A stretch of 64,000 bases of DNA from Escherichia coli (GTDB lineage: Bacteria > Pseudomonadota > Gammaproteobacteria > Enterobacterales > Enterobacteriaceae). Below the pieces are notes generated by a model. That model had not been told where the DNA came from and did no database searches. It saw only the letters and a list, made by a program, of their open reading frames with translations. Location: NCBI RefSeq assembly GCF_036507355.1, contig NZ_AP027877.1. One strand, written 5' to 3'. Below, one piece after another: positions 50,291 through 64,000 of the stretch (position 1 is its first letter; each line of letters starts with the position of its first letter). The translations under genes and the position numbers were made by a program.

Positions 50291-50450
50291 AGGGTCAATA
50301 TAAAGGCATTACTAGCATCGGGATGTACTAATCAACGGAGAGCAAGATCACATCCCTAACAGTATGACCAGATAAGCTATTCATAGTAAAAAAATATATC
50401 CACTAACCATCTAGAAGATAAGTCATGATTTTCACGGTAATGACTCCAAC

Positions 50451-50954
50451 TTATTGATAGTGTTTTATGTTCAGATAATGCCCGATGACTTTGTCATGCA
50501 GCTCCACCGATTTTGAGAACGACAGCGACTTCCGTCCCAGCCGTGCCAGGTGCTGCCTCAGATTCAGGTTATGCCGCTCAATTCGCTGCGTATATCGCTT
50601 GCTGATTACGTGCAGCTTTCCCTTCAGGCGGGATTCATACAGCGGCCAGCCATCCGTCATCCATATCACCACGTCAAAGGGTGACAGCAGGCTCATAAGA
50701 CGCCCCAGCGTCGCCATAGTGCGTTCACCGAATACGTGCGCAACAACCGTCTTCCGGAGCCTGTCATACGCGTAAAACAGCCAGCGCTGGCGCGATTTAG
50801 CCCCGACGTATCCCCACTGTTCGTCCATTTCCGCGCAGACGATGACGTCACTGCCCGGCTGTATGCGCGAGGTTACCGACTGCGGCCTGAGTTTTTTAAA
50901 TGGCGGAAAATCGTGTTGAGGCCAACGCCAATAATGCGTGCACTGGCGCGACAT
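50451..50954 (-). CDS. insB: IS1 transposase InsB (produced as InsAB fusion by frameshift)
   Basis: 167-aa [53 protein letters not shown]... Confidence 0.9.
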
Positions 50955-51148
50955 CCGACGCCATTCATGGCCATATCAATGATTTTCTGGTGCGTACCGG
51001 GTTGAGAAGCGGTGTAAGTGAACTGCAGTTGCCATGTTTTACGGCAGTGAGAGCAGAGATAGCGCTGATGTCCGGCAGTGCTTTTGCCGTTACGCACCAC
51101 CCCGTCAGTAGCTGAACAGGTGGGACAGCTGATAGAAACAGAAGCCAC
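50873..51148 (-). CDS. insA: IS1 protein InsA
   Basis: 91-aa [46 protein letters not shown]... Confidence 0.9.
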
Positions 51149-51504
51149 TGGAGCACCTCAAAAACACCATCATACACTAAATCAGTAAGTTGGCAGCATC
51201 ACCTAAGTCTTGAGCCATTATTTCTATAAAATACATGTTAAATCATATTAGAATAGTTTATACGATAATTCGCTTGAAGAAGAAAAACACTATTCTAATT
51301 CAAACATTTTATATTATCAAGAACCATGGTAATTACAGTTAATTTACAGTATCAGTGATGTGGTTTCCAAAAAAGTATGCCCAAACATTTAAATATATGC
51401 CTTCGATAAATGAACTTTAACTCATCAGAATGACTACCCATCAATACTATTGAGTATATGAAGACAATTCACAGTCCCATCTGGCGAATTTTTCAGATGG
51501 CGAG

Positions 51505-54500
51505 TTAAATATCTTCTGGTGATTCCCCCAGATACATCTTACGGTAATGATACACTTCAAAGAATTTCCCCTTGTCTTTGTAACTACTGATAAAGTAGCA
51601 ATGTGTTAAATACTTTAGCAGGATCTCATTACCTTCAGTTTTGTGAACTTTTGCTCGTTTGGTTTTATCCGCAATCAAATTATATTCTTCCGACACGAAG
51701 GCCATAAGCGCACGATTGATGTATTCAAAAGGCAGTTCTTCACACTCTAAAAGATGATTCAAAAACACAAGTCGAGTGTCATCTTCCGAAACATTAAGAA
51801 GGAGTGCTATACTGACTTTACTATTTAGGCTTATATGGTCGAAGAAACTATTGGTATAGTGCGGCCAGAGAACATTGATGATTGAAACTTTAGTCGTCAA
51901 CTCTATATCGTCATCATTGAGCACAAGCTCAATAAGTTCATTATCGAAATCTTCGTCATCTTGCAGATAAAACTCAATATTATTTTCAAAAACAGCAAGG
52001 TTGTTTCTAATCATAAGCGACAGACACTCATTGAGGCCCTTGCGACGTTGTCCCTCATAAATGCTGAGTACGTCTTCATAGAGCGCTTCTGACAGCAAAA
52101 CTCTGTTGCTCTCACAAAGTGCTTTAAATTTTGTCAGTGGCAGGTCACTGATTACCTTGTCGATACTTACAGGCAGCACGCTGATCAACTGTGCATATAA
52201 CGCGTCTGGCTTATCCGCTGCTGAAATGATGTGATTCACAACATTATCAATAGACTCCTCAGGAACACTGACCTTATGGCCTGAAAGCACCTCTGGATGG
52301 TGAGCAAAAAACGCCCACAATATCTCATCGTCGACATCGGTATACATGTAGTTAAATATGTTATCCCAGTTGGCAGCGACACGCCCATGTTTAAACAAGA
52401 GGTCATAAACAGTGAATGACGCACCCTCAACTACCGATAGCCTGATATTTTCAACTGTCGACAACTGCTGAACTTCAAAATCCATGTTTTCAATTATAAT
52501 TTCTTTGGAACGCTCAGTAGCGTCTGAATTAATTAGTGAAATAACGGATCCAACGCTTTCCTCAGAATGAATGAAATATTCCACAATAAACATCTCAAGG
52601 TTTGTATTTACAGCCTCAATTAAGCATGGGACTTTTTCACTCATAATTAAGGTATATGGATTGCGCGATAGTTCCTCAACATTCTTTCTGTTATTAGAGT
52701 ACGCATTAAACAGTGCAGTGAGGTTATTAATATTAAATACATACAGAAAATTCTCTGCGATAAACTTCACCAACGTACGTTCACTTTCATCGTTAGCTTC
52801 ATTGACGCTATCGAATACAATATTGAGCTCTTTTAATTTTATGCTGAATGACGCAATCTCATCGGGTCGTATGTATGTAAACAACGTAGTGTCTGTTTTT
52901 AATTCATGCAGATAATCCTGAACAGCACTTTGTCGGGTAATGTTTTCTATCAGACCAAAACGAAGTAATGACACAAATAACTGCTGATAAAAATCATCAT
53001 CAGAGTCAATGTCACGGTAAGTACTCATCGCCGCCATCAATTTACCCAATGTCTTTTCATCGCTTAAAATTAAATTAATTAAGTCATGATAGTCATCATT
53101 ACTAAATTCATAAAAATACGTCCGCATAGTGCGAATGATTAAGCCATGTGAGCAATAATTAAATAAATGAATAAAAACATCACGGGCAAAACCAGCTCGG
53201 CAGTTGATCAAAAAGCTAATTATATGCGGATGAAAAATCCCCTCGTAATATTTAAATGATAGCGACTCCATTTTATCTACAACATTGGAAACGTTATTCA
53301 GATGAATATCTTTTAACTCCTCAAAATTCACCTTAGCAGCGACCTTCTGGATATAAACATTATCTGATTTACTTAATGCACCTGCATGGAAGATAGAGCG
53401 ATATTGCATGTAATCCTGCTCAATATATCCATTTGACAACATGAAAAACAACAATTCCATATTGAAATTAATCGCTGAAGGCTTGGATGCATTTTTATTT
53501 CCCTTATCGTCAGTTGATGCAACATTAAGCAACCACTCACTCAATTTCGCTAAGGTTATTTTTTCACATAATTCATGAAGTGATAGGCCATTTCGTTGAT
53601 TAAGAACACGCTGTGTGTTTAAAATATTTTTAGATAATTGCTCAACGGTTTTTTGGTTCTTATCTAAAATAACTGGTGAGCGTTTGTTATATTCACGTAA
53701 ACTCTCAGCTCGCTTATTATGTGGAATTTGGAAGGTATCTTGATATTCATACCCGTTTCTTGAATATGTGATAGCTATTCCGGATGGAAGCTCTCTGTTC
53801 AGAAAATCACAAAACAATGATTCATCCCCACAAAGTTCAACAAAGCTCCAGCTACTCCCAACTTGCCCATACTTATTATGGCTTATATAAAACACTGTAT
53901 TCGATTCAATTTGTTCAGGAAGATAACGCCTTAGAATTTCAACCCTCAGATTTAAACTGGATGTTTGCAATTCCTTTTGTACTTTCACCAACTTTTCTTT
54001 CTGCTGAGAAATCTTTATTTCCAAATCTTTAAAATACACGTCATGTAGCGTTCTCTTAGAGTAAGCATTAACTATTCTGTATAAAAAACCATCCTGATTA
54101 TCAAGCAGAGTGAAATCTTTGGTACATAAATTTTTATACATTATCAAAGAAAATAACTTCACATCAGAAATCTCACCCGTAATTAATTTTTTAAAAATAT
54201 TAAATTCATTTATAACATTATTCATCACCCGCATATCAGTCAGGTAAAGGGATACTTTCTTGAAAAACTGCTCTTTATCTACCGAATTAAAGTTTATAAC
54301 TTTACTACTTAATATGTCATACGCATTCTCACTATCTACTGCAGGTATAATCGGCACAATAAAATCAAAAAATTTTGTTTGTGATTCAGCATCCTTTAAT
54401 AAATCCTCCCTGACTGCAAAAATAAATTTAATCGGTTTCTTTTCCAATAGTCTGGAATTGTTTATCACTTGATTTATTTCACGGAGCTTAATAAAAATAT

Positions 54501-55407
54501 GACCATTGTTTAAACGGTCTAAATCTTCAAATACGACAACTCTATACTTTGTTTTAAGGAAGAAGTAAACAATCTCATCAATATACAAATTTAGCAGAGA
54601 AGCTGTATTCTGTTTTTCCGCCGCAATTTCTGCCTTTAAGAGATTTACTTTATCAAGAGCAATTTTTCTGTCAAAAAATCCTATCCGATAAAAACGAGAC
54701 AGCAGATACCAACAAATGATAAATGATAGCGAACCGATACATCCCCAACGCCATACCGGATGTATCGCAATGAAATGACTCACCGCTGACGGTAATGAAA
54801 ACGTGTTGATAATTTTTTGAGGAAACAACAATGTAGTGACAACGATTGTCAGTATGAGAACAAAAAACAGCAAACAGGATGTTATTAGTATTTGCCCAAC
54901 ACTTCGGGTGTGAATGCGCTCTACCCGCGAATCTGGCAGCGTACCTTTATCCACTTTGTATAAAATCTGCTGTAATATGCTGTATTCAATGCTTTGTTCT
55001 TTTGATAAAGACTCGGAACTTTTTAGTGTCTCATCCGTTTCAAAGTTTGCCAGTGAGATAATCACGTGCTCATCCGCTGGTTTTAAACTTGTAAACCTGA
55101 GCCAATATTTCAGGCGGTGCCACAACCGCTTTCGCCCTTCAATTTTTTTAAGGTATGAGAGAATAACCGAGCTTTTACCCGCGCCATAGGACCCCGTGAT
55201 GGCGATGTTCTTCACATCATCCCGGCTGAGGGCATAATCCAACGCCTTAAAATAGGGTTGATATCCCTCTTTATCAGGATCGACAATCGGTGTTAGCGTT
55301 TGGAATTCCCTTTCCGTTCCTGAATTGTTTTCTGAAGTAACCTGAAGCCTTGCGACTGTTTTATGCAACCAGTCTGCGATCGTTTTCAACCCGAAAGACA
55401 GCGCCAT
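51505..55407 (-). CDS. Large (1300 aa) KAP/YobI-like P-loop NTPase with transmembrane hairpin inserted between Walker A and Walker B; long C-terminal region of unknown function. Candidate defence/conflict protein
   Basis: Walker A ITGSYGAGKSSV (about aa 70-81), two hydrophobic helices (about aa 171-195 ILITSCLLFFVLILTIVVTTLLF and 215-236 HPVWRWGCIGSLSFIICWYLL), Walker B-like VVVFEDLDR (about aa 290-298); Lys/Asn/Ile/Phe-rich composition; gene is conspicuously AT-rich versus flanks. Confidence 0.75.
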   Translation of the reverse strand: MALSFGLKTIADWLHKTVARLQVTSENNSGTEREFQTLTPIVDPDKEGYQPYFKALDYALSRDDVKNIAITGSYGAGKSSVILSYLKKIEGRKRLWHRLKYWLRFTSLKPADEHVIISLANFETDETLKSSESLSKEQSIEYSILQQILYKVDKGTLPDSRVERIHTRSVGQILITSCLLFFVLILTIVVTTLLFPQKIINTFSLPSAVSHFIAIHPVWRWGCIGSLSFIICWYLLSRFYRIGFFDRKIALDKVNLLKAEIAAEKQNTASLLNLYIDEIVYFFLKTKYRVVVFEDLDRLNNGHIFIKLREINQVINNSRLLEKKPIKFIFAVREDLLKDAESQTKFFDFIVPIIPAVDSENAYDILSSKVINFNSVDKEQFFKKVSLYLTDMRVMNNVINEFNIFKKLITGEISDVKLFSLIMYKNLCTKDFTLLDNQDGFLYRIVNAYSKRTLHDVYFKDLEIKISQQKEKLVKVQKELQTSSLNLRVEILRRYLPEQIESNTVFYISHNKYGQVGSSWSFVELCGDESLFCDFLNRELPSGIAITYSRNGYEYQDTFQIPHNKRAESLREYNKRSPVILDKNQKTVEQLSKNILNTQRVLNQRNGLSLHELCEKITLAKLSEWLLNVASTDDKGNKNASKPSAINFNMELLFFMLSNGYIEQDYMQYRSIFHAGALSKSDNVYIQKVAAKVNFEELKDIHLNNVSNVVDKMESLSFKYYEGIFHPHIISFLINCRAGFARDVFIHLFNYCSHGLIIRTMRTYFYEFSNDDYHDLINLILSDEKTLGKLMAAMSTYRDIDSDDDFYQQLFVSLLRFGLIENITRQSAVQDYLHELKTDTTLFTYIRPDEIASFSIKLKELNIVFDSVNEANDESERTLVKFIAENFLYVFNINNLTALFNAYSNNRKNVEELSRNPYTLIMSEKVPCLIEAVNTNLEMFIVEYFIHSEESVGSVISLINSDATERSKEIIIENMDFEVQQLSTVENIRLSVVEGASFTVYDLLFKHGRVAANWDNIFNYMYTDVDDEILWAFFAHHPEVLSGHKVSVPEESIDNVVNHIISAADKPDALYAQLISVLPVSIDKVISDLPLTKFKALCESNRVLLSEALYEDVLSIYEGQRRKGLNECLSLMIRNNLAVFENNIEFYLQDDEDFDNELIELVLNDDDIELTTKVSIINVLWPHYTNSFFDHISLNSKVSIALLLNVSEDDTRLVFLNHLLECEELPFEYINRALMAFVSEEYNLIADKTKRAKVHKTEGNEILLKYLTHCYFISSYKDKGKFFEVYHYRKMYLGESPEDI

Positions 55408-55668
55408 TGAGTGTCCTCACAATCACGAATATTAAATTCATAAATTGGAGACAATCCTAACATGAATCAAAAGAATCATCACACAATCATGTAGTTAAAA
55501 GAACAAGCTGGAACCTGATTTTTTATAGCATTTTCACGCAGCACAGTTTTTGCCCACGATAGTATCACCGGATTACGCTCACTCAAGATCAAGCTTATCG
55601 TACACCCGCACTACATATCAGCTACACCCATCACCGTAACCGAGTCCCATCGATATTCACTGACTAGT

Positions 55669-55713
55669 GTTGATACACCCATATAGATATATATACCCAT
55701 TGAGTGTATCAAC
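55669..55713. promoter_or_regulatory. Inverted repeat GTTGATACAC-N25-GTGTATCAAC upstream of the NTPase gene
   Basis: Perfect 10-bp arms at 55669-55678 and 55704-55713 flanking an AT-rich spacer (atatagatatatat); lies between the putative rep gene stop and the NTPase start. Confidence 0.35.
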
Positions 55714-55765
55714 TGATGGATTACATGCGTCTAAACGCTTATAGACATCCTGTCTTATGGACAAA

Positions 55766-56638
55766 CTACTTACGGGTTCTCACCCCAGAGGTAAATGTCA
55801 GTCCAGTAAACCCCATCTCATCCTGCTTACATAACGCCCGTGCCAACAGAACAGGCGGCAGCCTGTGTTTGGGGGTACGGCGTTTTCCTGCCTCATCAGG
55901 ATAAGGTCTTACTTCCAGCCACATCCCCTTGAAGCAGTATGTTACCTGCTCGTCAAAATCCTTCAGCTTCTGGCTTTTCATCGGCCGACTGATTATCCCC
56001 GCTCTGGCCCGCATATTTTTATCCCTCTTCATCGCCTTTCTTAGCGTTTTGAGCGCCCCCGGCTCTCTCGGCATCAGTAGATGCAGGTGAGGCATCCAGC
56101 GCTGGATATCGGTGTGAAAATCCAACTCGTAGTCACCCACTATTTTGCCCGTAAATCCGGCTCTTTTTATCATCTTGTAGACCCGCTCCCGGAACTTCTT
56201 ATGATCCCAGCGGCTGATCTCGTCTTCTTTCAGCATGGCATCGTAATAAACCAGCGTAACCACTCTGTACGCGCCCTTAGAGGCCCTCAGTGGGAGCAAT
56301 TCAGTCAGCTTACGTAACCTGTGCAGGCGGAAACACTGTGGGCAGGCCGCGCTACCACATTGATGTTCTGGCATACAGCCCTCCAGTTTTCTCTTTAACC
56401 GAAACATCCGCCCTCGCCACTTTTTGTGTGCTTTTCTGACTTCTTTGCTCTCATCCTGATTATCATTCCTGTTCTGCCGCACAGCCTTTCGTATTGCTTT
56501 TATGCGGTACAGGCGTTCCTTCTCCATTTGCTCCCGGGTTTCAAAACCCGGAATGGTAAGAGCTAACTTTTCCAGTTGGCGCTCTTCTTCTGTCAGTGAT
56601 GCATACACTGCTCGCGCAATACGGTTTGTACCAAACAT
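55766..56638 (-). CDS. Putative HUH-type replication initiation protein (inovirus Gp2-like), island-encoded
   Basis: Contains HLHLL (His-hydrophobic-His) motif in WMPHLHLLMPREP and a Cys cluster CGSAACPQC; start placed at Met 56638 directly after the alpA stop (track ORF overlaps alpA by 50 bp). Confidence 0.45.
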   Translation of the reverse strand: MFGTNRIARAVYASLTEEERQLEKLALTIPGFETREQMEKERLYRIKAIRKAVRQNRNDNQDESKEVRKAHKKWRGRMFRLKRKLEGCMPEHQCGSAACPQCFRLHRLRKLTELLPLRASKGAYRVVTLVYYDAMLKEDEISRWDHKKFRERVYKMIKRAGFTGKIVGDYELDFHTDIQRWMPHLHLLMPREPGALKTLRKAMKRDKNMRARAGIISRPMKSQKLKDFDEQVTYCFKGMWLEVRPYPDEAGKRRTPKHRLPPVLLARALCKQDEMGFTGLTFTSGVRTRK

Positions 56639-56639
56639 A

Positions 56640-56834
56640 TCAGCAACCTCCTCTGGTCCCACGGGAAGCAATCCACTCATTGACTTCACTTTCCAGCCAG
56701 GCCACCGCTCGTCCTCCTGTCAGGGATTTTTGGCGTGGGAAAGTCCCTTTTTCAATCATCCGGTACAGTGTGGCGCGGCTCACCGCACAGCGTTCCAGCA
56801 CAGCCTGAATTTTGACCAGTTTCATATCATTCAT
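56640..56834 (-). CDS. alpA: AlpA-family phage/island transcriptional regulator (MerR-like HTH)
   Basis: 64-aa ORF MNDMKLVKIQAVLERCAVSRATLYRMIEKGTFPRQKSLTGGRAVAWLESEVNEWIASR, the AlpA signature. Confidence 0.8.
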   Translation of the reverse strand: MNDMKLVKIQAVLERCAVSRATLYRMIEKGTFPRQKSLTGGRAVAWLESEVNEWIASRGTRGGC

Positions 56835-56941
56835 GTTTCAACGTTCCTCAACAAGGAAAGGGAACGCGCTATTAACAAGATCCAAAATCGGGGCTCTGTG
56901 AGGGGGGGGTTGGGACGTCTACTGGCTCGTTTCATACCTAT

Positions 56942-57547
56942 TTGTCGGGCCGACACTTTATGTCCATTGTCGGTCCGACAAAAGAGTCGTTAGAATGCTC
57001 AAAAATGAATGCATCAACGGGAGTTCGCGTGACAGGAAAAAGGCAGACCAGCCGCCAGAAACGGTCAGATAAAATGAGGAAAAATGCAGGATTGACTCAA
57101 GTGAAGGTTTACCTGGATGAAACCACTCTGCAGTTACTGGGGTTACTTCAGGAAAATATGTCAGAAGGTGATATGAAGGGTGATGAGGTCAATATGTTCC
57201 GTAGCATGGCTATAACGGCCAGTATCCACACCCTGGCAAAAGAACGACTGGGGGAACAAGAAGTATCGCATATGGTGATCAAGAACCTCGGTGCTGACTG
57301 CCCATCCGACGAAGCGACAGAAAACCCACGTAAGTTTCTTCTCCGGACGATGATTAACCACCTGTATGATAATGGCACACACAATCCGCACCGCCGTCGA
57401 TTGTCAGAAGTGGCTGGAATTATGAATGAAAGCAGTTTCAGGAACCCGAAGAACAAAAAAGGGGGATGGAGTGAAAATGATATCAGTCACTATGTCAGCA
57501 ATGACATAAAACTGGAAAATGATACCTCGGTTGATGTACCGGGCTAA
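56942..57547 (+). CDS. Hypothetical protein divergent from alpA; possible ribbon-helix-helix regulator (start uncertain)
   Basis: Internal segment MRKNAGLTQVKVYLDETTLQLLGLL resembles an RHH beta-strand/helix; real start may be one of the internal Met codons (about 57005 or 57074). Confidence 0.35.
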   Translation: MSGRHFMSIVGPTKESLECSKMNASTGVRVTGKRQTSRQKRSDKMRKNAGLTQVKVYLDETTLQLLGLLQENMSEGDMKGDEVNMFRSMAITASIHTLAKERLGEQEVSHMVIKNLGADCPSDEATENPRKFLLRTMINHLYDNGTHNPHRRRLSEVAGIMNESSFRNPKNKKGGWSENDISHYVSNDIKLENDTSVDVPG

Positions 57548-57760
57548 GCAAATCTATACACCAATATATTTATCTCTGGAATACCCTGGTCGGGGAGCAC
57601 GAATTAGTTATTCATCAGGGGTGGTGAGTTGGTCGTGCTTTCCCGGAAGGCAGGTGCGCCAACGCCAGTACTTGGTATACCTGTGGGCTATCAAAAATAG
57701 TCTCTGGCCCCGTTTGATGGTTTTAACCAACAGGCTGCGGTGGTCATCCCCCATGAAAGC

Positions 57761-58708
57761 TTACCAGCAACATAGCGCCCTGGAGGCTCTGTCTACAGCC
57801 TGCCTGCCCCTACAGTCATAGCGTGTGGTCGTGGATATATCCGCATGTCCTGCCAACTGGCGCACCACATTAATGTCCACTCCCTGCTCCAGCAGGCGGG
57901 TGATGAATGTCCGTCGCAGGTCGTGGGGGGTGAAGTAATCCACTTCTGCAGCTTCGCGTAACTGCGCCAACAGCCCTGTAAGACCCGTGGTGGTAAGCCG
58001 TTGTCGTCCTGGCTGCCCCGCACGACTGATGCGACTGAACAGCGGCCCGGCATGATACCCCCGGAGCTTCAGCCATCGCCGCAGTTGCATGCAGACTTTT
58101 CCGGAAAGGTGGATTTCCCGGATTTTGCGCCCCTTTCCCTGCCTGACAATCACGATCCCCGTGGCTACATCTATATCTCCCACGTCCAGGGCTACCAGTT
58201 CGGCGGCACGCAGACCTGCGCCACACAGAAGCAGCAAAATAGCCCGATTACGCTGGCAACGTACAGCGTCAGCCTTTCCGGCCGCCGCCAGCATGGCCCG
58301 AATTTCGGTCCTGTCCAACGCCCTGCCCAAGCGGGTGGCACTGCCAGTGACACGCCTGACTGAACGTATGCGCGTCAGTCTGTCAGCATCCAGAATCCCC
58401 ATACTGAAAGCCGCTCCGGCAACCGATTTCAGCGCCGACAGCGCCATGTTCACCGTGGCAACAGCATAGCCCTCATCCAGCAGCACCGAGCGTACCCGCA
58501 TCACGCTCGTGTAGTCCAACGTATGCCAGGGGTAGGTGTCGGGCTTCGCCCCCGGACGGAGGATACCGGCACATCGTCGGAGTAAGCTTTGCATCCCCCT
58601 GCGCCCGGCTGGCGTCAGGCTTGCCAGCCACAGCAATGCTGGGTTGATGGAGAGGGCATTTTGCGGGTGGACAGATGCCGCGCGTTTACCATTGCGGCTC
58701 GTGGTCAT
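57761..58708 (-). CDS. Tyrosine-type site-specific recombinase (XerC/XerD-like), GC-rich
   Basis: 315-aa ORF with catalytic region ...FTPHDLRRTFITRLLEQGVDINVVRQLAGHADISTTTRYD (R..H..R..Y) and LCGAGLRAAELVALDVGDID box; visibly GC-richer than neighbouring island genes. Confidence 0.7.
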   Translation of the reverse strand: MTTSRNGKRAASVHPQNALSINPALLWLASLTPAGRRGMQSLLRRCAGILRPGAKPDTYPWHTLDYTSVMRVRSVLLDEGYAVATVNMALSALKSVAGAAFSMGILDADRLTRIRSVRRVTGSATRLGRALDRTEIRAMLAAAGKADAVRCQRNRAILLLLCGAGLRAAELVALDVGDIDVATGIVIVRQGKGRKIREIHLSGKVCMQLRRWLKLRGYHAGPLFSRISRAGQPGRQRLTTTGLTGLLAQLREAAEVDYFTPHDLRRTFITRLLEQGVDINVVRQLAGHADISTTTRYDCRGRQAVDRASRALCCW

Positions 58709-58784
58709 AATATCATCCTTATTATTGATAGTGGGATATCCCGGTCAGGTCTGACCGGGAGTGAGGGTTAATATGTCTTCGTAG

Positions 58785-59405
58785 TCAGCGTTTTTTCACA
58801 CCATAATGCTGAAGGTAGCGATTCAGGCTCCGACCAGCGCCAGTCTCAAAATTCCATGTCCGCCAGATAAGCTGCCCCACTGTGTCGCGTATCACCAACC
58901 GGAAGTGGGTATGCAGGTCATCCTCAATGGCGACATTTTTATACGTCGCAACCACAGCCTCTGCTTCCAAACGAGTAAACGAATCTGGGGGCAGTTGTGG
59001 CGTCTGTATTGTGGGCTCTGGTGCTGCGCGGTCAGGACGTGAATGCCGTCCCTGTGTGATGTGACTGACGGCTTGGTAACTGCTCTGCCTCAGAAGTCCG
59101 GTGGTCTTCCTTGCCCGGAGAATATCAATGGAGGTAATGTGCGGAGACTGGGGGATAAAGCTGACATTACCCTGGTCTGTACGTACCAGGTCGTACTTTT
59201 CAACAATAGAATTCAGGGCCTCCGTCAGTGATATCTCTGCATCAATGTATGCCTGAATGGCACCTTTCCCGCTAAACGGCGTGTCGCTGAGAGTGAGTCC
59301 GTAGTGCTTCTCCAGCAAGTAAGCCAGCAGAGTGTGCCAGACATCAGCAGGGGACAGGCAACACGATAGTGTCCGATTTGGTGAGACCGGTTGTTTTTTC
59401 ATCAC
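58785..59405 (-). CDS. CbtA/YeeV-family type IV toxin homolog with about 80-aa C-terminal extension
   Basis: First ~125 aa align by eye to CbtA (..[35 protein letters not shown]..); ORF continues to 206 aa. Confidence 0.65.
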
Positions 59406-59511
59406 TGTATTCTCGCGGATAACATTGAAAAAGACGCGCGAACGTGAACATCAATTGAACGTCCGCACTTATTGGAATCCGTCGGCCAGACGGGCAAAAA
59501 GTGACTTCCAT

Positions 59512-59895
59512 CTACTGTCCCGAAGACCGGGAAGCCATGGGATAAATGGCGATATATACGTAGCCACAGGAGCCGAGCGTGTTAGCCTCGCAGATCAGCC
59601 CTTCTACCTGTAGCGTGATCCCCTTCGCCCTGCGCGGGTCCAGTTCACCGGACAGCAGAATGCTTTCCATCTGCCTCATGAGCAGCGGAAATATCTGGTC
59701 CAGATGGCGTGCGTCTCTGTCGCTGAACGTACCGGTGAATTCAGCCCGGTCAGCCAGAAAATGCAGGCAGCCGCCCTCCTGCACCAGACGCGCCCCGAAG
59801 CATGGCGTCACGTTGCACTGTAGCCCCCACAGATCTGTGGGTGGCGTATCGTAGTCTTTCAGATCTGTCATGTCAGGTGTCCTCAAAAGTCGCAC
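59512..59895 (-). CDS. CbeA/YeeU-family antitoxin homolog
   Basis: 127-aa ORF with ..LWGLQCNVTPCFGARLVQEGGCLHFLADRA..HLDQIFPLLMRQ..SGELDPRR.. matching the CbeA family pattern; immediately upstream of the toxin. Confidence 0.7.
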   Translation of the reverse strand: MRLLRTPDMTDLKDYDTPPTDLWGLQCNVTPCFGARLVQEGGCLHFLADRAEFTGTFSDRDARHLDQIFPLLMRQMESILLSGELDPRRAKGITLQVEGLICEANTLGSCGYVYIAIYPMASRSSGQ

Positions 59896-59931
59896 TGCCA
59901 GTGCATCAATCTGGCAATGCTGGGTAGTTCT

Positions 59932-60369
59932 TCAGCTTTCCCACAGCACGCGCGTGGTGTAGACCCCGCTGGCGTAGTAGCTCAGGAAGTTACGCTCCCA
60001 CAGGCTGTAAAGCGCCCTTACTTCCGTTAGAGGCAAATCCCCCGTACAGTAGTGCCAGACATAGCCCTGCGACCAACTGATATCGATGATTTTCTCCAGC
60101 TCCGGGTAGACCGTGCCGACATAGCCAAAATCGGTGGCGTAGTCCAGGCACCACTCATCGCCCTGATGAATTAGCCGGATCTCCACCGGGTGATAACCCC
60201 CCCGCTCCACACTGTAGTCCGGGTCCCGGAAGTTGAATGTCACGGCGGTGATCCGATGTTTATGGGCGGGTATTTCGCCCGCCTCTGCCATCAGCAGTTC
60301 GTACAGTTGCAGACTGACAGGCAGCATAAAGCCTGCCGGCTGAATAACGGCATTGATGTTCAAGAGCAA
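59932..60369 (-). CDS. Hypothetical protein between radC-like gene and antitoxin
   Basis: 145-aa ORF, no motif recognised; occupies the position of the small DUF987 gene in CP4-like modules but is about twice as long. Confidence 0.4.
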   Translation of the reverse strand: MLLNINAVIQPAGFMLPVSLQLYELLMAEAGEIPAHKHRITAVTFNFRDPDYSVERGGYHPVEIRLIHQGDEWCLDYATDFGYVGTVYPELEKIIDISWSQGYVWHYCTGDLPLTEVRALYSLWERNFLSYYASGVYTTRVLWES

Positions 60370-60454
60370 AACCTCAGTGTTTACAGTTTAAAAAAACGTG
60401 AAGGGATAAAGCGGACGTGTCTTAGCGTGGATAATGTGTATTAAACCAGGTAAC

Positions 60455-60943
60455 TCACAGTAGCCCGTGTTCAGCGAAAGACCAGGCTTTGTCGCCTCCC
60501 ACAATGAGATGGTCGGTCACGCGGATATCCAGCAACGCCAGTGCGTCTGTAATTTTTTGGGTAATGAGTTTATCGGCCTGGCTCGGTTCAGGCTCACCAC
60601 TGGGATGGTTATGCACCAGTATCACAGCAGCAGCGTTGTGCGTCAGTGCCAAGCTGACTATTTCGCGGGGATAAACCATCGTCTGGCTCAGCGTACCGAT
60701 AAACAATGTCTGGTAGCCGAGAATATGATGTTGCTGTGAAAGCATTATCACACCAAAAGATTCACGGTTTTCAAGCGCCAGCTTCATCACCAGCCACTGA
60801 CGTACATCTTCAGATGAGGTGATTTTTCGGCGATTGCGAAACTGGCGGGTCAGCAATGAATGGGCAAACCGGATAATCTGTTCGCGGGTAACCGGCTCCA
60901 GCGTCTGATAATGACCGCTACGATCACTTGCGATAAACGTCAT
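60455..60943 (-). CDS. RadC-like JAB/MPN-domain protein (YeeS/YfjY-like)
   Basis: JAMM motif HNHPSGEPEPSQAD and C-terminal DHLIVGGDKAWSFAEHGLL; start set to Met 60943 to avoid overlap with upstream ORF (alternative 60997). Confidence 0.7.
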   Translation of the reverse strand: MTFIASDRSGHYQTLEPVTREQIIRFAHSLLTRQFRNRRKITSSEDVRQWLVMKLALENRESFGVIMLSQQHHILGYQTLFIGTLSQTMVYPREIVSLALTHNAAAVILVHNHPSGEPEPSQADKLITQKITDALALLDIRVTDHLIVGGDKAWSFAEHGLL

Positions 60944-60965
60944 GATGTACTCCTTACCTTTTAGT

Positions 60966-61589
60966 TCAGAATTCACGTTCAACAAAGTAAATGGCATCCG
61001 GCAGCAACGTATGGCGCTTCAGCTCAGGTTGTACTGAAAACGTGTCCTTTCGCTGGCTGCGTATCCCCAGGCTATCAAACAAAAACAACCGGGTAGCATC
61101 GGTACGAACCACCACTGACCAGTGCCATGTGGTCCCCATAATCACCACGCGCTGCGCCTGATTCTCCGGTGAAGCCAGCCAGTCGCTGATATCATGAAAT
61201 ATTCGGTGAGTTCTCAAGGTTCGATAACGGAAGGGAGTATGAAAATAGAGGGGATAATGTTGGGCGTAATGCCCTCTCAGCAGAACATCTGCTATCAGGT
61301 GGTCCATCTGCTCTTCATCCAGGCCAAGCGTCAGGAGATCAAATAAGTCCCATCGTCGCTTATAGCTGCTTAGCAGGCGGTACATTAATTTTTCCCGCCT
61401 TACCCTGCCGTCATAGAGGTAACTCAGGGTATTAATCAGGCTGTAGATGCCACACAAATAGTCATGCTGTCCCTGGCGGGACGCATGAACGTCTCGAGGA
61501 AGTGTCATTGTAAATTTCCGGGATAAGTGATGGCTGTGAACCAGCCGGAATGGTGGTGATACAGTGGCTGAGCGCATGATGGCAGCCAC
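60966..61589 (-). CDS. Hypothetical protein with conserved-looking Cys and His (possible cysteine-hydrolase fold)
   Basis: 207-aa ORF; LCGIYSL near N-terminus and HWSVVV near C-terminus; sits where CP4-like elements usually carry an anti-restriction gene but does not resemble ArdB/KlcA by eye. Confidence 0.4.
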   Translation of the reverse strand: MAAIMRSATVSPPFRLVHSHHLSRKFTMTLPRDVHASRQGQHDYLCGIYSLINTLSYLYDGRVRREKLMYRLLSSYKRRWDLFDLLTLGLDEEQMDHLIADVLLRGHYAQHYPLYFHTPFRYRTLRTHRIFHDISDWLASPENQAQRVVIMGTTWHWSVVVRTDATRLFLFDSLGIRSQRKDTFSVQPELKRHTLLPDAIYFVEREF

Positions 61590-61665
61590 TGTATAAATTA
61601 TAACAAAATCAATACATTAATGCAAGTGATTCTTGTTATCACTTATCCAGCGACTCCTTCACTTG

Positions 61666-62046
61666 TTACTGGTTAACGTCTCCTTCAGACAGGTCCCTTG
61701 CAACCTGAGCCAGAGCCTGCTGCAAAAGTTTATCCCTAGAGGCCGGTTTCATGGTACGGAACAACTGTATCCACAGGTTAAGCTGCTCGTCTGCTGAAGT
61801 ATCTGCCGCATCCCGCTCACTTTTCAACGCCATCCCTGCCGCGCTGATATGGTACAGAAACCCCTTCCCACTGGTGCGTTTGCGGCGGATTTCCGGATGT
61901 AGGGCTGTGAGCTTTTCCAGACGTAGCCGCGCCCATTTCGCTGTGCCCGGCATTCCTTCCATTCCGGCAAACTGCTCTGCTGTAAGCCACTCCCCACTGT
62001 CCGTCATTCCGGCATCACAGGGCTCAGTCATCTGTTCACTGCTCAT
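61666..62046 (-). CDS. Hypothetical acidic protein, possible DNA-binding regulator
   Basis: 126-aa ORF MSSEQMTEPCDAGMTDSGEWLTAEQFAGMEGMPGTAKWARLRLEKL...; the left end of IS5 abuts its 5' region. Confidence 0.4.
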   Translation of the reverse strand: MSSEQMTEPCDAGMTDSGEWLTAEQFAGMEGMPGTAKWARLRLEKLTALHPEIRRKRTSGKGFLYHISAAGMALKSERDAADTSADEQLNLWIQLFRTMKPASRDKLLQQALAQVARDLSEGDVNQ

Positions 62047-62077
62047 AAAATTTCACCTCTTATCAAAGCGTTAGTTA

Positions 62078-63272
<1,195 letters not shown>

Positions 63273-63416
63273 CTAAATGAGCGCAAATAACCACAAAAGG
63301 AACTTGATAACTTCCCTTTGTTTGCTTTTAATATCTCCGGTACTAACAACCCGGAGTGAATACATTGAGTAACTCAACAGATTCGCAAAAAAAAGCGAAG
63401 TAAGGGAAGTGCTGTT

Positions 63417-63635
63417 AACTGGCACCGGGCAGATATTGTCGCCGCCCTGCATAAGCGGGGACTTTCCCTGTCAGCTCTCTCCCGGCAACACGGGCTGGCT
63501 TCCAGGACGCTGAATAACGCTTTTGAGCGCCACTATCCGCGGGCGGAAAAGATTATTGCGGAGGCACTGAACACTACGCCCGAAACCATCTGGCCTGAGC
63601 GCTATGCAGGTAGGTCTGTCAAAAACGAAAGCTGA
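63417..63635 (+). CDS. Ner/Nlp-like DNA-binding protein, lacking an in-frame ATG start (possibly truncated)
   Basis: Frame encodes NWHRADIVAALHKRGLSLSALSRQHGLASRTLNNAFERHYPRAEKIIAEALNTTPETIWPERYAGRSVKNES, resembling Ner-like regulators; no ATG between the upstream stop (63366-63368) and this segment. Confidence 0.45.
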   Translation, partial: NWHRADIVAALHKRGLSLSALSRQHGLASRTLNNAFERHYPRAEKIIAEALNTTPETIWPERYAGRSVKNES

Positions 63636-63647
63636 AGAAAGCATGTT

Positions 63648-64000
63648 ATGTCGACCACCATTACTGAAGTAACGGAATGCTTTGAGTACCTTTTTAGTTC
63701 CCTTTACCGGAAAGCATTTGTCAAAACCCTGCGCCTTAACGAATGCAGTGAACGGGAGTTGCTACCGCTGGTACGCTGCTACCTGCTGGGTTGGTTTGCC
63801 GACAGCGTCTCACCGGAAGTCCGGGGGAAACTGCCCGGCAGTATCTCCGGGCATGGCTATATTGATTTCGTCATTGACGATGTGGCAGTGGAGTTCGCCG
63901 TCCGTAAGCCAGGAGCCGCCCGTTCTGCACTGTCAGCCTCAGTCAACAGCACGGAGGTAAAGAAACTGATGAAGTATGACGGCAAAGCCCTGCTGGTACT
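63648..64000 (+). CDS. Hypothetical protein, 5' portion (ORF runs off window end)
   Basis: ATG at 63648 opens MSTTITEVTECFEYLFSSLYRKAFVKTLRLNECSERELLPLVRCYLLGWFADSVSPEV... with no stop before position 64000. Confidence 0.4.
   Translation, partial: MSTTITEVTECFEYLFSSLYRKAFVKTLRLNECSERELLPLVRCYLLGWFADSVSPEVRGKLPGSISGHGYIDFVIDDVAVEFAVRKPGAARSALSASVNSTEVKKLMKYDGKALLV

Follow-up and report, generated by a model that had tools for sequence, protein, structure and literature searches.

The right-hand part of the window (the whole stretch of E. coli DNA that was analysed, 64,000 nucleotides) lies in the regulatory core of an IS-riddled genomic island, one of a family of integrative islands, with the following features:

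61666..62046, minus strand: divergent gene for a 126-aa protein with a Mu-type (MuA N-terminal / repressor-like) DNA-binding domain according to PHROG matches; carries the substitution G38W
62075..62078, strandless: left target copy TTAA of the insertion sequence; the right flank, 63273-63276, is CTAA, and the empty site is GTTAG-TTAA-ATGAGC
62079..63272, plus strand: ISKpn26 (IS5 family), a defective 1194-bp copy, delimited from the ET729 annotation, its ORFs, an intact 1196-bp copy and the empty site of AR_0128
63304..63332, plus strand: candidate promoter of the regulator operon, with -35 TTGATA (63304-09), a 17-nt spacer and -10 TTTAAT (63327-32), proposed from conservation
63353..63356, plus strand: Shine-Dalgarno sequence GGAG, spaced 8 nt ahead of the TTG start, a spacing kept in 13 genera and alleles
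63365..63635, plus strand: the whole of a very probable EnrR/Ner-family pseudogene, 271 bp counted from the TTG start through the TGA stop, against 270 bp and 89 aa for the intact allele
63365..63403, plus strand: its 5' fragment, with the TTG start, 12 codons (LSNSTDSQKKAK) and a premature TAA at 63401-63403
63369..63635, plus strand: Ner-like frame, 88 codons and TGA with no canonical start; HTH_35 domain, with structure matches to EnrR and Mu Ner
63387..63394, plus strand: homopolymer run A8, one longer than the A7 of intact alleles; the +1 frameshift lies here, in codons 8-10 (Gln-Lys-Lys)
63648..64000, plus strand: partial ORF of p175 (WP_000108266.1), the first 117 of 175 codons; predicted BamHI-like PD-(D/E)xK fold

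The original prediction had described a Ner/Nlp-like reading frame that follows directly on a stop codon and lacks an in-frame ATG, and this is borne out (PF13693, E 6e-28). A TGA at 63366-63368 precedes an open frame at 63369-63632, closed by TGA 63633-63635, and there is no ATG, GTG or TTG among its 88 sense codons. The frame is no chance ORF, since its sequence from residue K9 on is exactly that of an annotated 89-aa protein with matches to HTH_35 and to solved structures. This intact protein matches Pfam PF13693 HTH_35 with 97 bits (E 6e-28, cut-off 25) over residues 18-84, all of them encoded within the window frame 63369-63635; it also matches phrog_769, 'transcriptional repressor', the EnrR structure 7F9H end to end (residues 1-86, E 1e-37) and the Mu Ner structure 1NEQ (E 2e-24). 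An Rfam search with both strands of the region holding the regulator and the partial ORF gave just a chance match far below threshold. The short minus-strand ORFs lying over the two plus-strand genes were discarded as unsupported; they overlap conserved genes.

Alignment with Ner-like genes places the N-terminus 18 codons ahead of a conserved Trp (63420), and every intact homologue examined starts there with GTG or TTG, never ATG, in a comparison that covers the E. coli alleles, a paralogue of about 77% identity, 13 other genera and 23 metagenome contigs. In the window the corresponding codon is TTG 63365, with GGAG at 63353-63356, so that a search for a ribosome-binding site with a non-ATG start does find one. 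The GGAG is kept at the same spacing across 13 genera and alleles, being GGGG in Lonsdalea, and it is found in most of the 23 metagenome contigs, two of which have GGGG. The TTG of the intact E. coli alleles is a weak start; most relatives have GTG. A non-ATG start, GTG or TTG, is thus universally conserved in this EnrR/Ner-type gene family, which corrects the annotation logic. The paralogous regulator of E. coli RM14723 (locus L007, 3013-3282) is annotated as a truncated 198-bp CDS from an internal GTG, accompanied by a spurious opposite-strand ORF; its full 270-bp GTG-initiated frame is open, which makes this an annotation inconsistency and not a mutation.

The conserved TTG does not lead into the Ner-like frame. 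It lies in another frame, displaced by one additional A in the A7 run, and the proposal that the frame has a non-canonical start of its own fails on this point. The ORF from TTG 63365 traverses the A8 tract and ends at TAA 63401, so that no continuous frame runs from the conserved start; taking one A out of the run in silico joins the TTG ORF to the Ner-like frame. Intact alleles read MSNSTDSQKKRSKGS... through A7 (CAA AAA AAG), and one of them, WP_001442951.1 of E. coli AR_0128, is annotated as an 89-aa CDS from the same TTG. Once the IS and one 4-bp target copy are removed, the window is collinear with the IS-free AR_0128 along 5,528 bp, and the two differ by 24 mismatches and one gap, which is the extra A; the alternative that the gene had lost its 5' end to the nearby IS is thereby refuted. 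The near-identical genome ET729 differs from the window at one base in the last 6,726 and likewise has a run of A8, and PGAP labels the same span there 'transcriptional regulator, frameshifted', so the frameshift was already known, being flagged in RefSeq.

The locus is thus very probably a pseudogene: a regulator gene of the EnrR/Ner family (Pfam HTH_35) broken by a frameshift, with its TTG start put out of frame. The prediction had named as its own refutation an intact gene with a conserved non-ATG start and a ribosome-binding site, next to an unrelated IS: start, ribosome-binding site and unrelated IS are all present, but the gene is not intact. The question of the missing start is closed by a one-base homopolymer frameshift to which the IS is incidental, and in itself it has little discovery value.

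The distribution of the two run lengths bears directly on how the A8 should be read. The regulator gene, at 95% identity or more, occurs in 40 of 5,426 complete E. coli genomes, and 37 of these copies span one base less than the window's and are annotated as intact, the A7 having been read directly in 4 of the 37 and the remainder judged by span and annotation. The A8 length is found only in ET729, ET826 and ET881, all from one study. A metagenome scan that tolerated A6 to A10 between conserved flanks returned A7 in 23 of 23 contigs, with no A6, A8 or longer run. Among other genera, Aeromonas, Yersinia, Hafnia, Citrobacter, Lonsdalea and Edaphovirga keep A7 where Gln-Lys-Lys is encoded; in Serratia oryzae a synonymous change of AAG to AAA lengthens the run to A8 without loss of frame. 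The out-of-frame arrangement is not conserved, the gene being in frame in nearly all species representatives as well as in the E. coli copies and metagenome contigs just counted. Pectobacterium sp. PL152 (CP091064.1, locus L018, 5732-6004) carries an independently broken allele at the same run, TCATAAAAAAAAAGCG (A9), with a TAA in the GTG frame, and the run is a weak point of the gene. A paralogous group in 510 further E. coli genomes, about 77% identical, has the run interrupted as CAG AAA AAG (CAGAAAAAG), with Gln-Lys-Lys kept. The regulator copy of Serratia symbiotica (locus L032) is also decayed. We conclude that the A8 is in all probability a lineage-specific loss-of-function mutation.

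Homopolymer indels are a common error type of long-read assemblies, and one might suppose that the real run is A7, the gene intact, and the A8 a miscall common to related assemblies; all three A8 genomes do come from one study, and the adjoining ISKpn26 copy likewise has a 1-bp deletion. We consider such an artefact improbable. The window and three genomes that differ in size and were assembled separately agree on A8, whereas ET665, ET915 and ET490, which that study also produced, have the shorter span expected for A7; the 5.5-kb comparison with AR_0128 shows just one indel, none of the core genes across the surrounding 44 kb is flagged as frameshifted, and the lineage has further private changes in the module, the IS and G38W. 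Nor do we favour a start at some non-canonical codon within the Ner-like frame, or removal of the 5' end by the IS, a reading whose probability we take to be negligible. Ahead of the conserved Trp, that frame has a single near-cognate codon, ATT 63381, which precedes the DNA-binding domain and would keep the basic stretch KKKRSKGS; it has no Shine-Dalgarno sequence at a suitable distance, however, no homologue starts there, and the interval between IS and gene is complete and collinear with IS-free genomes.

Another possibility, which we hold to be very unlikely, is that the A-run is a selected slippery tract. The A8 would then be an 'off' or leaky state in phase variation, or would be rescued by recoding, through RNA polymerase slippage (giving A7 transcripts from A8) or +1 ribosomal slippage on AAA-AAG; both routes would restore the wild-type protein sequence. 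The retention of A7 at the same codons in six genera, the in-frame A8 of Serratia oryzae and the second broken allele, in Pectobacterium, could all be accommodated in this way, and A-runs are known to be hypermutable and to permit slippage that partly rescues frameshift alleles, sometimes at 8 nt (Baranov et al. 2005, PMC1088944). The same authors found selection against slippage-prone runs to be evident in many bacteria from about 9 nt (PMC1088944), however, and phase variation would agree poorly with an in-frame state that is the norm in E. coli and in metagenomes, the latter showing no variant lengths. The paralogues in 510 genomes break the run and yet keep Gln-Lys-Lys, and the A8 copies are confined to a single lineage, whose members have the IS in common as well.

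Returning to a simple loss of function, replication slippage most likely turned A7 into A8. Ribosomes that initiate at TTG 63365 would translate 12 codons and then meet TAA 63401; the other 88% of the gene (63369-63635) would be left out of frame with that TTG and would lack a start. Any product made from it would lack the N-terminal alpha0 helix and would probably be inactive, since deletion of residues 1-17 of EnrR abolishes DNA binding, the N-terminal alpha0 being needed for it (PMC9023278). The A8 allele thus probably yields no functional regulator, though RNA polymerase slippage on the A8 could possibly yield some A7 transcripts (PMC1088944) and from them a low level of full-length protein. 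Expression of the tightly linked p175 gene is probably reduced as well, through lost translational coupling and polarity.

The IS had been reported as an IS5 with its right end about 140 bp upstream of the frame. The family is correct; the element is ISKpn26, and its right end, 63272, lies upstream of the TGA by 93 bp, of the TTG start by 92 bp and of the Trp codon by 148 bp. Its terminal repeats, GGAAGGTGCGAA..., are present and the target is of the YTAR type, the site used being a TTAA in the 120-bp divergent control region; the two target copies are non-identical, TTAA on the left and CTAA on the right. The transposase frame is broken into 62147-62677 and 62662-63126 by the loss of 1 bp near 62674 (TTTGG[C]ATGAAG); the PGAP label for the equivalent CDS is 'programmed frameshift'. 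ET729 has, at a distance of 8 kb, a second copy that is intact and 1196 bp long; the element is 98.6% identical to this copy, which has a perfect CTAA duplication. The empty site is visible in AR_0128, with nothing missing on either side, and the junction of IS and regulator is confined to the three A8 genomes. By comparison with that empty site, ISKpn26 is a separate, simple insertion, unrelated to the frameshift, that removed nothing and left the candidate promoter, ribosome-binding site and start of the regulator intact. It stands 32 bp from the ATG of the divergent gene (c-like below, the regulator being ner-like), and the native promoter of the leftward operon must presumably have been disrupted, since 32 bp is too short for a Shine-Dalgarno sequence, a 5' UTR and a full sigma-70 promoter.

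Within the control region, blocks conserved across genera include ATATCAA(T/A)GCGTTA, close to the c-like gene, and TTGAtA-N17-TTTAAT, whose -35 element is covered by a palindrome; in the window this imperfect palindrome occupies 63299-63315 and overlaps the candidate promoter on the -35 side. The promoter block is conserved across the 13 loci of the control-region alignment, from which we infer that the regulator operon would be transcribed from 63304-63332. A strict sigma-70 scan of the control region gave no hits in AR_0128 or the window, the candidate itself going undetected; a terminator scan of the same region likewise gave none in either, and a repeat finder gave neither direct nor inverted repeats across the 140-bp control region. 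The role of the intact regulator at its own control region may be supposed, by analogy with Mu Ner and EnrR, to be one of control.

The divergent 126-aa protein matches PHROGs for the N-terminus of a Mu-like transposase and for a repressor, and is 38% identical to residues 4-51 of a verified Mu transposase, within its PF02316 Mu DNA-binding domain. A search of PDB sequences with it gave nothing useful, and tblastn against phages gave just three weak matches, in unannotated records, one of them to the N-terminus of a Mu-type transposase. Its only amino-acid difference from the AR_0128 allele is G38W (codon 61933-61935, minus strand), at a glycine within the Mu-type DNA-binding domain that is invariant in 21 of 21 c-like homologues (motif MPGTAKGARLRLEKL). 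After the IS and the frameshift, G38W is a third lesion in one regulatory module of one lineage. The regulator is the rightward half of a Mu-style divergent pair, with the Mu-type DNA-binding protein facing leftward and the Ner-type protein rightward, forming the control core of this family of integrative islands.

The ORF after the regulator had been described as one of unknown function that runs off the window. It does run off, after 117 codons, but it is not unrecognised, being annotated in RefSeq as the hypothetical protein WP_000108266.1. It begins at ATG 63648, 12 nt past the regulator stop and in the same frame; extension beyond 64 kb by way of ET729 takes it to 175 aa, and the full-length gene is also seen at locus L002, 6373-6900. 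This protein, p175, is strongly conserved in the Proteobacteria: it has 277 homologues of 63-87% identity, in a range that runs from E. coli through Aeromonas, Pseudomonas and Nitrosomonas to Geobacter, and yet they form only 122 clusters at 50% identity among 1.84 billion representatives. It is unusually conserved for a mobile-element gene, with about 65% identity between E. coli and Geobacter, above that of the neighbouring regulators. No Pfam, NCBIfam, PHROG or PADLOC family was found for p175, Pfam gave nothing for its distant or long relatives, and a profile search of PDB sequences found none. Its structure is confidently predicted to have a BamHI-like restriction-endonuclease fold with an alpha/beta core, the comparison by predicted fold being with BamHI/BglII/BstYI/OkrAI-type enzymes. 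D73 and E82 recur in at least 90% of the sequences, position 84, the third of the catalytic motif, is Ala, and K106 and E103 are conserved elsewhere in the protein.

The two genes had been thought to be perhaps the start of another mobile-element module. They do belong to a mobile-element module; p175, however, is the second gene of the regulator's operon in the conserved island core. The triad of c-like, ner-like and p175 genes has the same geometry at 17 of 33 species-representative loci. At five loci (L012, L014, L016, L021 and L040) a single divergent XRE-family repressor of about 125 aa replaces the c/ner pair upstream of p175 (gene at about 6001), and these islands keep the flanking 180-aa hypothetical protein, DUF2787 and p175; the regulatory cassette is thus modular, the XRE repressor being swapped in while the flanking genes stay. 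Conserved, uncharacterised and without a family assignment, p175 is a reasonable target for studying island maintenance or excision. A bolder reading, which we would call a long shot, would treat the A7 tract in the alpha0 codons as a mutational on/off point with leaky slippage rescue, by which an acquired H-NS antagonist is silenced or tuned, and p175 as a payload controlled by the regulator, for example a nuclease of island excision or maintenance like the XisH-type factors.

The island as a whole, of about 24 kb, lies between ychF and ycgV with two P4-type integrases at its bounds, and extends in the window from about 50320 to 64000 and beyond (ET729 2866855-2890647, locus L008). No tRNA gene was found near the island end and junction. 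Its IS load comprises a frameshifted IS21 istA/istB, three copies of IS1, two of ISKpn26 and an IS3. The leftward operon continues with a 180-aa hypothetical protein, RadC, DUF2787, YeeU, a CbtA remnant, DUF905 and a tyrosine recombinase. The first of these, the ORF at 60966-61589 (minus strand) adjoining the c-like gene, is WP_000174655.1 in PGAP, with no family match; it has the motif LDCLCGxY...L.WLYDGRV, and every variant of the island, the XRE-cassette ones too, keeps it next to DUF2787 and RadC. Just past the rightward operon AR_0128 and JNU carry the RADAR defence system rdrAB, where ET729 has an IS3 and other genes. PADLOC gave no match for any of the six module proteins, and PADLOC, NCBIfam and Pfam gave nothing for the five other than the Ner-like one. 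A pipolin was considered on account of DUF2787, the two integrases, AlpA and the ychF site, and was rejected, no piPolB or other polymerase being annotated in the 44-kb region of ET729 or in AR_0128; DUF2787, the two integrase types and AlpA are all that is shared with the pipolin core (PMC11551731).

Of the characterised relatives of the regulator, the closest in the comparison is EnrR of Edwardsiella piscicida (ETAE_0051; PDB 7F9H/7F9I), a 90-aa island-encoded nucleoid-associated regulator that binds AT-rich DNA and displaces H-NS (Ma et al. 2022, Nucleic Acids Res 50:3777, PMC9023278). The intact E. coli protein, at 89 aa, is 74% identical to it over residues 1-80, both being members of PF13693, and the alpha0 extension SQKKRSKGSA (aa 7-16) is identical in the two. 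The contact residues R11, S12, H20, R47, E54, R55 and H56 of EnrR are conserved in the E. coli regulator; Q17, where the change to Gly drastically impairs DNA binding by EnrR (PMC9023278), is replaced by Val, at a position that varies among relatives. Both proteins are encoded in islands among integrase, transposase and RadC-type genes, and unlike EnrR the present copy is frameshifted inside the alpha0 codons (8-10). AT-rich binding and H-NS displacement are known only for E. piscicida EnrR (PMC9023278), and H-NS antagonism or a virulence role would be speculative for the E. coli protein. SfsB/Nlp of E. coli (NCBIfam NF007670) is of the same HTH_35 family, and the regulator was rejected as an SfsB orthologue, scoring 81.3 bits against an equivalog cut-off of 150 (NF007670).

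Mu Ner (PDB 1NEQ/1NER) belongs to the same HTH_35 fold family and lacks the 10-residue N-terminal extension of the E. coli regulator. In the c/ner switch of Mu, as at the E. coli locus, a ner-type gene diverges from a gene whose product has the N-terminal DNA-binding domain of MuA and the Mu repressor, and a true Mu-like phage shares this divergent layout. Beyond it the two part company: in Mu, ner is followed by the transposition genes for MuA (the DDE transposase A) and MuB (the ATPase B), whereas at the E. coli locus p175 and small hypotheticals follow, and the island element, unlike Mu, carries tyrosine recombinases. E. coli islands carry close EnrR orthologues in a Mu-style divergent pair, nearly always with p175 following.
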